A stretch of DNA of 63,058 nt, the filler included, from Reclinomonas americana ATCC 50394 (Eukaryota): the NCBI GenBank assembly GCA_048213135.1. It is 6 parts of 5 records of this genome, joined end to end, with 100 filler letters (N's around TTAATTAATTAA, not from the genome) between each part and the next. Parts side by side here need not be neighbours in the genome. Positions count along the whole stretch, not along the records: positions 1 to 31,526 come from PS015651.1; positions 31,627 to 46,860 come from PS015652.1; positions 46,961 to 57,231 come from PS015654.1; positions 57,332 to 59,951 come from PS015655.1; positions 60,052 to 61,432 come from PS015655.1; positions 61,533 to 63,058 come from PS015659.1. One strand, given 5' to 3'. Both the position numbers and the translations under genes were made by a program. Below are positions 3,001 to 62,938 of this stretch, one piece after another; position 1 is the first letter of the stretch; every line of letters starts with the position of its first letter. The notes under the pieces were generated by a model. That model saw nothing but the letters and a program-made list of their open reading frames with translations, had not been told where the DNA came from and ran no database searches.

Positions 3001-6000
3001 AGCGAGTGAGCACCAATAAGGAGAATGTGAACTCTCAGCGTGCGCTCACCTCCCAGCACTTCCGACTGCAGTGCAACTGCCTTGCGCAGTACCGGTTCGG
3101 CCTCCTCAAATCTGCGCAGCGGCGTGTGAGAAACAACCAAGCTGATGTGCGCAGCGTACGTGTGCAACGAAACTTGGATTGCGCCCACAGAGTCTCCGCC
3201 AGATTCGACATTGTGATGAGTGAGTCCGGGTGGCGCTCACCAAATCGTTCCACACACGAGCTCAGGCAGCGACGGAAGAGCGCCTCAGCCTCGGGGGATC
3301 GCCGTAGTTTCTGTAGCGTCGTGGCGATGCAGTGCAAAGTCGCCACCGTGTCTTCGTGCTTCTCCCCGAGAACCTGTTCACGACCCGCCATGCACTGCTT
3401 GTACTCCTGCATCGCGCAATGAAAAACGACCGTACGCGTGAGCAGGCCATGGTGTGTCGATACCAGCACCTGCACAACGCCACGCTACGCACCTCAAGTG
3501 CCTCTGGCAGATGCCCACAGGCGGCGAGTGAACCAGCCAGGAAATGTCTACTTCTCAATGTTTCCACATCACGGTTGCCCAGCGCACCCACTTGAATTCG
3601 CACACAGTTGGCCAGCACTCGCCGCGCCTCCTCATTTAGTCCCAGATTCCGCGCCAGCAATCCCCACTCGCGCAACAGCCACCACCGTCGGTCCTCCAGC
3701 TGCGATCATCAACGTGGTACGTCAATTGACAAGCCCCTACGAAAGAGAGAGTCCCCACACACTTGTTCACACACAGCGCACCTCGTCAGCCATCACATTG
3801 CTACGTCTCGGCACGAGAGCCTGTCCGTCTTCGTCGTCGGGGTCGAGGATTCGAACACATACCTGCCGGAAGCACAACGCCAGCGGACGATGTCTCTCCA
3901 GATTCCACGCCGACACCAGCCGGAACGTCCACATGGCGCGCGCCCACCGTTCACTCGACATGGATCGTGGATCCAGCTCTGCACAAATGTGACGATGAGT
4001 GCTAGCGATGATCCGTAGTGATGGGGGGTAGAAAGGGTGGTGCGAACCGGCCAAGATTCGCCACAGTCCGTCAAGGTGACGAGCAAAGAGTGCACGACGA
4101 CGTGCGTGCGTCTCCAGTCCGCCTTCAACCAGCCGCACAGCCCACTCGATCATCAGCATTGCCAGTTCACATCGAGACTGCTCATGCGAGTAAGCAGCAG
4201 CGCGCTTCGCAACTTCCCGAGAGACATCACCGGTGCGCAACTATATCAAACGCCTCCACAAATCGTCGCTGCACATAGTCCACCAACATGGGATGCAAGG
4301 CGAATCCCACCAGCGATCGCCGCTCTGCTGGCACAAAATCTCCCACATTGCTGTCGGCGTCGTGGTCGGTGTCGAGCTGCAGCCGTTGCACACGGATCAG
4401 TTGTCTCGTTCTCGACCTGCTGCGCACCATTCACCTACCTCATCACTCTCTTCATCGGCTAGCCGCAATAGTGCGGCATCCTCCTCATCGGAACCTACCG
4501 GGTACTCATCGCGCGGAAGCACATGCGACTCCACCAATCGCTCGACAGCCTGCGCACACCACCACTACAGTGTCAGCGACGAGACATGTGCATGCGTACA
4601 TGAACATCAATACACACACACCAGTCGCTTCAAACAGGTCAAGTAATCGATTGCCGGTAGCGCGAGAGGCTCGGTGGGATCCGGGGTGTGCGATGCAAGA
4701 GCATGCAAACTGCGCACGCCGAGCAGTGGCAAGCCAGCGGCGGCGGCCAACGCCACCAGAATGCGACGCTCGGCCGACTCCAACCGAACAAAGCACGAAT
4801 CAAAGCCGAAGGTGGTCCACGGTGACAACAAACGGGTCAACACGCGTGGTTTTGGCATCTGTTTGCATCGGCTAATGGCGGAGAAGGCCGTCACAAAGCG
4901 CACTGCCAGTCGCACGTCACTCGGCTGATCGTCGGGGAGCGGCGCCACACTGGAGATGGTGCTCTGCGTGGAACTCTGCAGATCCGACTCGGCATCCACT
5001 TGCAGGTCGCACAACACCTGCCGCTGCTCGGGCGTCGCTAATGACAGTCCACCGACAGTCTCCTGGTGCGCCACATACGCTTCGCGATCGCCATCAGTTA
5101 ACAATGACGGCACCTCGAGCATGGAAACCGTGGCGGCAAAGTCAATGCTGCGCAGATCCTCTCGCAGTTCCTCCACCGCCGACGTGGTGACAAAGATAGT
5201 GACGGTGTGCGAATTCATGGTCGACGACAAGGTGCGCGGAAGGATGCCGGCCAAGTCCGACACCTTGGACACACCAAGGACGGTCAGCACAATCTCTGCA
5301 TGTCACATGCACACACACAAAGGATGAGTATCCACACAGCAGTGCCTGGCAGCGAACGCGTCGCTACCTTGCTCCGACGGTCCATACAAGTGAGCGTGAA
5401 TGGCATCACGAATGGCGTCCTCGGTCGACTCGCGCAAGTGGTGTGCACGGAACGGATTCAACAGCGCCAACAAATGCAGCGACTCATTGACGATCTGTGA
5501 GACAGCCCAGATGAGACACGGCATCGCAGTGGCAAACCCTGCGTCGGAGGCCGTCAAACCTGGAATTCCAACGCCGGCTGGCACCTGAAGAAAGTGACTG
5601 CTGGCGGAACACTCGGCTGCAGCGACGCCCCAATGTGTGCCACATCGCGCGCCAACGTGCGTGCAATGGTGGCCTTGCCACAACCAGAATCTCCATGCAA
5701 AACCACGATACGCACCGATCGTCGCGCCTCTGCAAGTGCACTCACAGGCGTGAGAACGACAAACCAAGCTCTCGTGCCTGCCGCACACAAACGCAACCTC
5801 GCAGCTGCTGCAGGCAGTGCTGACGAATGGCCTCCCACGTTGGATACAGAAACAATACCGGCGCCTCCACTGCCGCATGGCCCGTCAACTCGCCCAGCCC
5901 AGGAATGTCTGCACCACACACAATCAGAAGATCTTGACCACACTTGTCTCGTCCGCTCCAAACGACGCAACTGAGCGACGACACCGAGCTGGCATCGAGC

Positions 6001-6380
6001 GCACTGAGTCCCACACCCTTCGTCTTCTCCCCATTCAACGCCGGTGGCGCAGCCGATCGCGAGCTCTGCGGCCTCCGCATCACGGTCGTCCCCGACGGAT
6101 CGTGAGTGGCCGAGGCCGCGACCACCACTCGCCGTCCCGCAGACGACACCGATCGCGGCCGTGATGGTGGTGGCCCAGGCACCGCCAGTGCCAGTGGTGA
6201 CTGTGTGGCACATGAGATGGAGTGAGCAGCGGGGTGACCAACGACAAGCGACACACACGACAGACGGACCACTGCTTCATCCGCCTGTTCGCTCGGCGCC
6301 AACAGCATGTCCACTGTCGTCACAGCCGTGCTCGCGCCAGTCGCACGTGGCGCCACAGGCACAAACGACTCGTCCTCCAT
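1..6380 (-). CDS. STAND/NB-ARC-like NTPase fused to a long array of kinesin-light-chain-type TPR repeats (NLR-like); multi-exon, 3' end lies beyond the window start
   Basis: Spliced exons give a P-loop IVVLHGDSGCGKATIARTLA (~5650-5710), a degenerate Walker B region VLTVLGVSKVSDLAGILP, IFVTTS, AGLPL, and a winged-helix-like LHPMLVDYVQ. These are followed by many 42-aa repeats such as LGEKHEDTVATLHCIA, FGERHPDSLITMSNLA, LGEDHPDTVQA, LGDAHPDTLAVLHQLA and MGKDHPTTLSTMCDLG. Confidence 0.8.
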
Positions 6381-6627
6381 CGACTACACGAGAATGATGA
6401 GTAACAGTCATCTGCTTTCTTGACAACTGTATGAGCGATTTTTCTGTTGTATACCATATTACGAGGTAGAGGCGCGACAGCAGCGACTGCCGAGGACGCG
6501 GCTGTCTTGCTGCAACCACTGCCCATGGTGGCCGAGAAACAAAGTGTTTTTTGTCCGGAGTACTAGTGCGAAATCAGGTGAAATTTCGCCCTCTTCTCAC
6601 TACTCACTCACTTGTTTTTTTCCTGCC

Positions 6628-62233: not shown

Positions 62234-62325
62234 GTGGAAAGAATCATGCATCAAAAGTCAGGCGTTCGTCGGGGGTGCAGTGAAATGACCCTGGATGACG
62301 AAGCCTTCACACGCGCATGTTCCAC
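62234..62325 (-). promoter_or_regulatory. SECIS element (non-canonical GUGA/CC type) in the GPx 3' UTR
   Basis: Helix I GUGGAA-CAUGC pairs with GCAUG-UUCCAC; core GUGAA...UGAC; helix II GGCUUCGUC pairs with GACGAAcGCC; CCA occupies the AAR position; apical mini-stem GGGU/ACCC. Confidence 0.75.
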
Positions 62326-62412
62326 CGCCCAACCCCCTCAGCGATGCGACGGCGACGGCAGAGTACACAGCCGGCGAGCAAGCACTCGAGTGGGAATGTC
62401 GCAGTCGCGGCC

Positions 62413-62938
62413 TTAATGCGACAGCAGGTATTCAATGTCGCGCTGCAGATCGGCGGGGTACGTGCCCGGATCGTAGCGCTTGAATGGTTGACCGCTGCGG
62501 TCAAAGAGGAACTCTGTCGGAGAGGAGGAGTGAGGGGAAAGAGGTGGGGAAAGGAGGTGCATGCGAGGAGCGCAACTCTCAAAGTTCCAGGTAATGTCGG
62601 TGATGGTGATCGGACTCCACGCCAGGTAGTTTCGATCATCGCTCAGCGTCGGCTGCAGTGGTGGTGGATGAGTGGAAGGAGGACTAAAAATGAGCAGCAG
62701 TGAACGCAACGTTGGGGCTCGGCGAGCACACTTTACGCATCCAGGCGTAGAGTGGGTCGGCGCCAGAGCCGTTGACTTGCAGCTACCAGGCGGGTGTTTG
62801 TGTGAGCGATGTGTTTGAAGGAGAGGGGACGGGTTGGTTGGCTTTTACCTTGCCATACACCGGGAAGAGCGGCTTGTAGCCGCCGCCTGGGCGAACGTAC
62901 TGGAGACCGTTGAGGATCTCAGTGTTCCCGCCAGGTTC
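62413..62938 (-). CDS. Glutathione peroxidase, GPx1/3 (tetrameric)-type, 3' exons; probable selenoprotein (active-site codon is outside the window)
   Basis: [69 protein letters not shown]-like hairpin in the 3' UTR. Confidence 0.93.

Follow-up and report, generated by a model that had tools for sequence, protein, structure and literature searches.

A GTTGCG class of predicted GT-AG 5' splice sites in Reclinomonas americana, possibly read in a shifted register

Shifted-register 5' splice sites of human genes were reportedly described by Roca and Krainer in 2009. According to PMC4856993, shifted and bulged registers of the U1 small nuclear RNA (snRNA) have been confirmed in humans by suppressor U1 experiments, and all validated noncanonical registers taken together are estimated to make up 1.5% of human 5' splice sites. 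One of them is the bulge at intron position +3 (or +2) (Roca et al. 2012, as cited in PMC4856993 and PMC9311317), in which an extra U follows the GU and is succeeded by a normal +3 to +6 sequence. A changed reader is reported in bioRxiv 10.1101/2022.06.08.495308: Entamoeba and Mastigamoeba have a lineage-specific donor consensus in which +4 is C (in Mastigamoeba, GUGCGC), and a base of the U1 5' end has changed to match it. Here we report on predicted 5' splice sites (donors) with the word GTTGCG(T) in DNA from the eukaryote Reclinomonas americana ATCC 50394 (assembly GCA_048213135.1); "the window" denotes the whole stretch analysed, which is 63,058 nucleotides (nt) long, filler included. The original prediction, made from the same DNA, had listed 24 such sites as a second major donor class, displaced by one nucleotide from the usual GTGCGT. 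It had also stated that bulged or shifted registers are known only as minority cases, which is right for humans in view of the 1.5% quoted above.

The GTTGCG donors resemble the human shifted-register sites in that the consensus lies one base downstream, the cut precedes the GU, and a G at exon position -1 is not needed. Similarly, the layout of a human register test oligonucleotide given in PMC4856993, namely GU, any nucleotide, and then the +3 to +6 consensus, is that of GUUGCGU. The two cases differ in frequency, because a single displaced word makes up 11-14% of the predicted donors here, compared to 1.5% for all noncanonical human registers. They also differ in the kind of proof: the human registers were established with suppressor U1 RNAs, whereas the pairing proposed here comes from sequence statistics. 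The bulge at +3 or +2 shares with the GTTGCG class the extra U after GU followed by a normal continuation, but it predicts that the -1 G is kept, and this G is lost in the class. Finally, the account of Entamoeba and Mastigamoeba describes a single transformed consensus, in contrast to the two registers that seem to stand side by side in the window. Motif-based literature searches found no printed description of a GTTGCG donor class, although such searches are noisy and cannot show absence.

The window is eukaryotic in character, dense in genes and very rich in introns. Donors were called with a self-written two-strand hidden Markov model (HMM) gene finder that was trained on this window alone. 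It consisted of codon-position Markov chains seeded from Pfam-supported frames, a background for introns and intergenic regions, an iteratively learned acceptor matrix, and a minimum intron length. In its first version the donor model was a bare GT without any other donor information. A later version used a table of the tetranucleotides that follow GT (4-mer table), which is blind to donor class because it was learned from the predictions of the HMM itself.

All 24 listed coordinates carry GTTGCG on the expected strand, seven on the plus and 17 on the minus strand, and position +7 is a T in 20 of them. With the bare-GT model, GTTGCG was the commonest donor hexamer on the first pass (10 of about 120) and still ranked top through training (25 of 207 donors). 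When the minimum intron length was raised under the bare-GT model, 23 of 209 N-free introns began with GTTGCG, 24 with GTGCGT, and 11 with GTGAGT; independent base frequencies at positions +3 to +6 would give 1.22 GTTGCG donors. With the 4-mer table, the count rose to 30 of 212 introns, compared to 1.44 expected from independent positions. In these two sets the share of GTTGCG is 11-14% of the predicted donors, and it is the commonest or second-commonest hexamer. Furthermore, GTTGCGT occurs 34 times on the two strands of the window, whereas 100 dinucleotide-preserving shuffles contained 12.9 +/- 3.8 copies and none reached 34. The excess over independent positions and repeat content that the original prediction implied is thus borne out, and GTTGCG(T) is confirmed as a real, major donor class that independent positions do not explain. 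Of the 79 copies of GTTGCG in the window, 31 are predicted donors, compared to 27 of 127 copies of GTGCGT and 15 of 76 copies of GTGAGT. With the bare-GT model, GTTGCGT is as good a predictor of donors as the perfect usual consensus GGTGCGT, the ratio of donors to other sites being 17:16 and 17:14, respectively.

Of the 24 listed sites, 20 were recovered as donors with the 4-mer table (16 of 24 in an early bare-GT version); the other four were not recovered. The 4-mer table also added 11 unlisted GTTGCG donors, at 246, 5971, 10360, 20872, 26915, 29956, 31360, 36912, 55118, 58163, and 58565. The class shares are approximate, because several genes of the predicted intron set are fused or lack exons and some of the donors outside the two classes compared below are surely wrong.

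For a check by homology, full-length proteins were fetched by means of single-exon queries and aligned to the spliced models. The sample of junctions is biased, since genes were chosen for holding listed sites. Twelve junctions show no gap over the 12-14 residues that flank them on each side in any of the three homologues compared, and five of these are GTTGCG junctions. Pfam searches with 38 exons that border GTTGCG donors yielded few usable profile coordinates, the exons being too short. The five gap-free GTTGCG junctions and two further supported ones are as follows; a slash marks the junction, and "listed" refers to the original prediction.

24020..24026, minus strand: GTTGCGT donor in isoleucyl-tRNA synthetase (IleRS; NGLVLA/ADGKKMSK), listed; phase 2, 74-nt intron; gap-free against three homologues with 20-21 of 24 residues identical
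24968..24974, plus strand: GTTGCGT donor in the C-terminal piece of IleRS (QALRKS/SGLK), listed; 74-nt intron; gap-free against three homologues with 8-9 of 23-24 residues identical
59312..59318, minus strand: GTTGCGC donor in katanin p80 (VENEK/S ARTMAGH), listed; 63-nt intron; gap-free against three homologues with 13-15 of 24 residues identical
59115..59121, minus strand: GTTGCGT donor in katanin p80 (KNCIQ/TYRG), listed; 69-nt intron; gap-free against three homologues with 13-14 of 24 residues identical
58559..58565, minus strand: GTTGCGT donor in katanin p80 (AEGMR/VWEWEP), unlisted; 68-nt intron; gap-free against three homologues with 9-11 of 24 residues identical
44727..44733, minus strand: GTTGCGT donor in a UvrD-like helicase (YAEYETW/KDAECVLDFDDLL), listed; 71-nt intron
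62570..62576, minus strand: GTTGCGC donor in glutathione peroxidase (GPx; WNFE/(K)FLFD), listed; phase 1, 63-nt intron

The conserved motifs that had been put forward as anchors stand. The junctions at IleRS VLA/ADGKKMSK and katanin CIQ/TY are gap-free against three homologues, the katanin gene coding for the p80 WD40 subunit and not for p60, and the exon ends at GPx WNFE/(K)FL align to GPx chains at the motif. For the GPx donor at 62576, the alignment with GPx chains of solved structure extends to the last residue of the upstream exon (WNFE) and begins with the first residue of the downstream exon (FL); the best-aligned chains listed differ between the two exons. At the junction at 44733, none of the three homologues shows a gap within 8 residues upstream or 14 residues downstream, and in two of them at least 12 upstream residues are gap-free. 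The distance from this junction to the conserved DFDDLL is preserved in the homologues.

For a comparison of intron properties, donors of the form GTRNG (86 introns) were assigned to class A and GTTGCG donors (30 introns) to class B. The median intron length is 69 nt in class A and 70.5 nt in class B. CAG acceptors are present in 73 of 86 and 27 of 30 introns, respectively, and the other three class B introns end with TAG. All 30 class B introns are bounded by GT and AG, and their removal gives gap-free homologue alignments at five junctions. The motif YT[CGA]AY is found between -45 and -8 of the acceptor in 61 of 86 class A and 25 of 30 class B introns, as a motif count and not as mapped branch points. 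In 12 predicted gene models, introns of both classes are found together. These values agree with the intron set as a whole, which has a median length of 70 nt (quartiles 62 and 78), CAG acceptors in 172 of 214 introns, and, in most introns, a CTCAC/CTGAC-like motif about 20 nt upstream of the intron end. Judged by length, acceptor and branch-like motif, the GTTGCG introns are ordinary GT-AG introns, presumably of the major spliceosome, with a different 5' word.

Other identities of these introns were considered and rejected. U12-type introns also form a second donor class beside the main one in the same genes. However, a [AG]TATCCT(T) donor or a TCCTTAAC-like branch site was found in none of 214 introns and at no site of the window on either strand, and the 3' halves of the window's two classes are alike. 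An all-versus-all BLAST of 212 introns speaks against a family of introners: apart from (TG)n and other short matches (14-25 nt, mostly of low complexity) it returned nothing, and no class B family was found. Cuts displaced by one base relative to the GT, in either direction, were also discarded, as the neighbouring positions give no GT..AG intron and the reading frame fixes the length.

A comparison of the bases around the cut distinguishes the two classes. A G at exon position -1 is present in 65 of 86 class A donors, compared to 4 of 30 class B donors (13%; p=2e-9), and the bare-GT set gives the same picture with 60 of 79 and 3 of 23, respectively. The original prediction had counted about three such G's among its 24 sites, which is exact (3/24), and the anticorrelation between GTTGCG and -1 G that it anticipated is found among the predicted donors of the window. 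In its G content, position -1 of class B does not differ from position -2 of class A (4/30 versus 21/86; p=0.3). Likewise, T at +7 of class B (22/30) is as common as T at +6 of class A (54/86; p=0.37). The columns therefore agree when slid by one base: A -2 corresponds to B -1, and A +2 to +6 corresponds to B +3 to +7, with a final T in 62% and 73% of cases, respectively. The consensus words G/GTGCGT and /GTTGCGT, with the slash marking the cut, are one letter apart: a T replaces the second G, so that the single GT of the word sits one base further upstream and takes the cut with it. The loss of the -1 G indicates that a shift of the whole register fits better than a bulge at +3. Of the earlier proposal that donors are read in two registers, the major class, the consensus displaced by one base and the lost -1 G are upheld, and the option of a tolerated +3 bulge is not, since the -1 G is not kept. 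The two-register reading of donors is accordingly supported by sequence statistics.

The reading that we favour, with a confidence slightly better than even, is that GTTGCG(T) is a genuine and abundant class of GT-AG 5' splice sites of the major spliceosome which is most likely read in a shifted register. As a mechanism we propose that the donor-reading RNA would pair with G-N-U-G-C-G-U alike in both classes, this RNA being the 5' end of U1 and probably later the ACAGA box of U6. In the GTTGCG class, the +1 G of the intron would occupy the place of the exon -1 G, the +2 U would be a tolerated mismatch, and the catalytic centre would still cut before the GU. As one pair would already be lost, only the best-fitting version of the remaining word (GCG, mostly followed by T) would work, which would explain why the class is very sharp. 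An extension of this reading, which we regard as tentative, is that the spliceosome of the lineage routinely uses two donor registers, either because the U1 5' end has co-evolved to read GGUGCGU (with an ACGCACC-like core) or because a second U1, different by one base, is dedicated to the class. In the case of a co-evolved U1, GUUGCGU would be a site with one mismatch that is read one base out of step.

Several results weigh against the shifted register. The fourth base of GTGNG donors is C in 34, A in 25, T in 11 and G in one case, whereas the corresponding base of GTTGNG donors is C in 30 cases and T in one (p=5e-7). GTTGNG is almost always GTTGCG and is thus narrower than GTGNG, so a displacement of the usual signal by one base does not by itself describe the class; a pure shift would be expected to tolerate the other positions equally. 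Duplex energies, calculated with ViennaRNA for the standard U1 5' end taken from a table in PMC4856993, average -1.2 kcal/mol for GTTGCG, -5.2 kcal/mol for GTGCGT, and -9.9 kcal/mol for GTGAGT, and the GTTGCG sites have no consistent pairing register with this RNA. With standard U1, the rarer word GTGAGT would therefore pair better and the GTTGCG class would be almost unreadable; so weak a duplex means that shifted pairing alone hardly explains so specific a signal. With a hypothetical U1 core complementary to GGUGCGU, the values become -7.5, -13.0, and -7.9 kcal/mol, respectively, which places GTTGCG at the mean of all donors (-7.5 kcal/mol), mostly in the shifted register. In addition, 96 of the 212 predicted donors belong to neither class, some of them surely being wrong, and the intron set consists of gene-finder predictions from this window and not of transcript junctions.

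One rival reading is a dedicated snRNA, a second or altered U1 with full complementarity to GUUGCGU that might differ from the main U1 by one base opposite the +2 U, so that two readers would operate. In sharpness and donor specificity the class equals the perfect usual consensus, as would be expected from a fully matched reader; the energy of the hypothetical GGUGCGU-complementary core is likewise compatible with a changed U1, and the co-evolved U1 5' ends of Entamoeba and Mastigamoeba (bioRxiv 10.1101/2022.06.08.495308) provide a precedent for a changed reader. However, the same source gives a standard U1 for Thecamonas and Mamiellales in spite of their preference for C at +4, so the prior for a changed U1 is modest. 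Moreover, both donor classes lie side by side in the same genes, and a second RNA is thus not needed to explain their distribution. We consider a dedicated snRNA unlikely. Rather unlikely, too, is a reading without U1 pairing, in which UGCG(U) would be recognised later by U6, U5, Prp8 or a protein, with a distance to the cut that varies by one base. The very weak predicted pairing of the class with standard U1 speaks for it, as does the C before G, which can pair with neither standard U1 nor U6 and yet is near-invariant in the class; there is also a proposal of noncanonical U6 registers at a tandem donor in humans (PMC11162779). This reading offers no direct account of the -1 G, whose preference in class A and loss in class B are a signature of pairing with C9 of U1.

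The same signature bears on the bulged register, in which U1 would pair normally with +1 G (C8) and +2 U (A7), one U of +2/+3 would be bulged out, and GCGU would pair like the usual +3 to +6. Although such a bulge at +3 (or +2) is a validated register in human cells (PMC4856993) and two consecutive U's would ease its placement, exon position -1 would face U1 C9, so that the -1 G should be retained or even gain in frequency. With 4 of 30 compared to 65 of 86, the opposite is seen, and position -1 of class B is indistinguishable from an unconstrained position; a bulge is hence likewise unlikely. The reading as an artefact, according to which the GTTGCG sites are gene-model errors, TG/GC-rich repeats or members of a repeated intron family and not donors, is largely refuted and has very little probability left. 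In its favour are the predicted, not observed, nature of the introns, the many (TG)n runs inside them, and the four of 24 listed sites that were not confirmed. It is contradicted by the five GTTGCG junctions that homologue alignments cross without a gap and the two further supported ones, by an enrichment that is present with the bare-GT donor model from the first iteration, by the count of GTTGCGT in comparison to dinucleotide shuffles, and by an intron-versus-intron BLAST that finds no family. The shifted register remains our preferred reading of a genuine donor class.

Further GTTGCG sites with a predicted intron, and the remaining listed ones, are given below. The donor at 4241 is forced by an in-frame stop four codons downstream. 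The exon upstream of 28618 matches positions 14-46 of the COG4_N profile. Two listed sites, 9417 and 21702, are ambiguous because the reading frame is also preserved by a different GT..AG intron that ends at the same acceptor; at 9417, the early bare-GT model chose the donor 9396 instead, which gives a 44-nt intron.

62704..62710, minus strand: GTTGCGT donor, GPx, listed; 58-nt intron; predicted with the early bare-GT model and the 4-mer table; in a length-variable region that homology does not pin
4235..4241, minus strand: GTTGCGC donor, NPHP3-like NTPase/TPR gene, listed; 64-nt intron; predicted with the 4-mer table
5791..5797, minus strand: GTTGCGT donor, NPHP3-like NTPase/TPR gene, listed; 68-nt intron; predicted with the early bare-GT model and the 4-mer table
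5965..5971, minus strand: GTTGCGT donor, NPHP3-like NTPase/TPR gene, unlisted; 63-nt intron; predicted with the early bare-GT model and the 4-mer table
240..246, minus strand: GTTGCGT donor, TPR region, unlisted; 68-nt intron; predicted with the early bare-GT model and the 4-mer table
7496..7502, plus strand: GTTGCGT donor, class-3 lipase, listed; 72-nt intron; predicted with the early bare-GT model and the 4-mer table
8113..8119, plus strand: GTTGCGT donor, class-3 lipase, listed; 68-nt intron; predicted with the early bare-GT model and the 4-mer table
10354..10360, minus strand: GTTGCGC donor, weakly supported, unlisted; 139-nt intron; predicted with the early bare-GT model and the 4-mer table
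11104..11110, minus strand: GTTGCGT donor, listed; 80-nt intron; predicted only with the 4-mer table
16194..16200, minus strand: GTTGCGT donor adjoining an N run, listed; 76-nt intron; predicted only with the 4-mer table
20866..20872, minus strand: GTTGCGT donor upstream of the Sec24 zinc-finger exon, unlisted; 70-nt intron; predicted with the 4-mer table
25622..25628, minus strand: GTTGCGT donor, the preceding exon having a weak Pfam match to cytochrome b5, listed; 72-nt intron; predicted with the early bare-GT model and the 4-mer table
26909..26915, minus strand: GTTGCGC donor, COG4, unlisted; 71-nt intron; predicted on the first pass, with the early bare-GT model and the 4-mer table
28612..28618, minus strand: GTTGCGA donor, COG4 N-terminal domain, listed; 57-nt intron; predicted on the first pass and with the 4-mer table
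29950..29956, minus strand: GTTGCGT donor, unlisted; 57-nt intron; predicted with the early bare-GT model and the 4-mer table
30130..30136, minus strand: GTTGCGT donor, listed; 75-nt intron; predicted with the 4-mer table
31354..31360, minus strand: GTTGCGC donor, unlisted; 69-nt intron; predicted with the early bare-GT model and the 4-mer table
32871..32877, plus strand: GTTGCGT donor, listed; 76-nt intron; predicted with the early bare-GT model and the 4-mer table
33813..33819, minus strand: GTTGCGT donor, listed; 62-nt intron; predicted with the early bare-GT model and the 4-mer table
36912..36918, plus strand: GTTGCGT donor, unlisted; 85-nt intron; predicted with the early bare-GT model and the 4-mer table
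37467..37473, plus strand: GTTGCGT donor, listed; 75-nt intron; predicted on the first pass, with the early bare-GT model and the 4-mer table
41023..41029, minus strand: GTTGCGT donor, listed; 82-nt intron; predicted on the first pass, with the early bare-GT model and the 4-mer table
58157..58163, minus strand: GTTGCGC donor, katanin p80 tail, unlisted; 82-nt intron; predicted with the 4-mer table only; homology too weak
9411..9417, minus strand: GTTGCGT site, EF-hand gene, listed, ambiguous; predicted on the first pass, exon in the last model
21696..21702, minus strand: GTTGCGT site, listed, ambiguous; the gene finder prefers donor 21736 in a low-complexity region
50210..50216, plus strand: GTTGCGT site, listed, unverified; exon in the model, followed by purine-rich low-complexity sequence; gene model unreliable
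60534..60540, minus strand: GTTGCGT site, listed, unverified; the model has a plus-strand gene here and is unreliable

A smaller set of donors has the word GTTTCG(T), with 6 of 212 predictions, three of them with T as the next base. They are located at 18487-18493, 18296-18302, 3167-3173, 30923-30929, and 34232-34238 on the minus strand and at 38259-38265 on the plus strand. The relation of GTTTCG to GTTCGT (7 of 212 donors) parallels that of GTTGCGT to GTGCGT, i.e. an extra T follows the GT. For the Sec24 donors of this set at 18493 and 18302, a comparison with PDB chains gave an upstream alignment that falls 46 residues short of the end of its exon, and one exon was unmatched. Two further donors that follow neither consensus are gap-free against homologues, namely GTTTGTC at 23216-23222 and GTGTTGT at 58953-58959, both on the minus strand. 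Donor recognition in this DNA therefore tolerates quite divergent words.

The G+C content of the whole window is 58% outside 4582 N, compared to 49.4% reported for Kipferlia bialata (PMC5874029), and the median intron length of 70 nt compares to 55 nt reported for Plasmodiophora (PMC2483917). Long open frames were named by Pfam as NPHP3-like NTPase/TPR, class-3 lipase, EF-hand protein, an endonuclease-VII-like frame, Sec24, isoleucyl-tRNA synthetase, COG4, UvrD-like helicase, and RRN3; katanin p80 and glutathione peroxidase were identified by exon searches. Rfam at gathering thresholds gave no match in the window, and hence no snRNA, and ARAGORN gave no tRNA. The endonuclease-VII-like open frame (11901-12368, minus strand) weakly matches the Pfam domain PF02945, recombination endonuclease VII (E=1.6e-5), which is more familiar from phages and giant viruses. 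Within IleRS, the catalytic and anticodon-binding part is encoded at 23027-24548 on the minus strand, and the C-terminal domain (ISRVQALRKS/SGLK) at 24824-25329 on the plus strand, across a run of 20 N at 24460-24479; about 630 N-terminal residues are missing. This split, opposite-strand arrangement is probably due to a scaffold contig that was mis-oriented or mis-joined and not to a real gene order. Carpediemonas and Giardia IleRS are among the best matches to the IleRS exon query, and no protein of the collections searched exceeds 80% identity to the exons used as queries. The UvrD/Rep-type helicase gene (42253-45605, minus strand) contains many spliceosomal introns and is followed by a long acidic tail; the best matches of its exon are proteins of about 715-750 residues with 46-54% identity, and the N-terminal model is short by 12-13 residues at two places. 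It may be an old bacterial-type gene in a eukaryote.

Microsatellites of (TG)n/(CA)n are common within introns and often lie directly upstream of the acceptor, for example at 21626-21736 (minus strand), 37467-37541 (plus strand), and 41753-41810 (minus strand). Almost all BLAST matches between introns are due to these repeats. A pattern of 44 N, 12 bases and 44 N occurs five times (31527-31626, 46861-46960, 57232-57331, 59952-60051, and 61433-61532) and looks like a masking or scaffolding convention without biological meaning. The other N runs of the window are runs of 20 N and runs of 671-942 N.

How the exact cut site is fixed after U1 has left has been studied mostly on rare human sites and engineered mutants. 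A genome whose one-base-displaced donor matches the perfect consensus in frequency and specificity would be a natural test bed for the hand-over from U1 to U6, for the tolerance of the catalytic centre towards an extra base, and for the co-evolution of snRNAs and their sites. In practical terms, gene finders that use a single position-weight matrix will miss or misplace about one in eight donors in this organism. If donors are indeed read in two registers, U6 must accept an extra nucleotide between the cut and the ACAGA helix at more than one in ten introns, and the organism would provide a natural uncoupling of the U1 register from the position of cleavage on a genomic scale.

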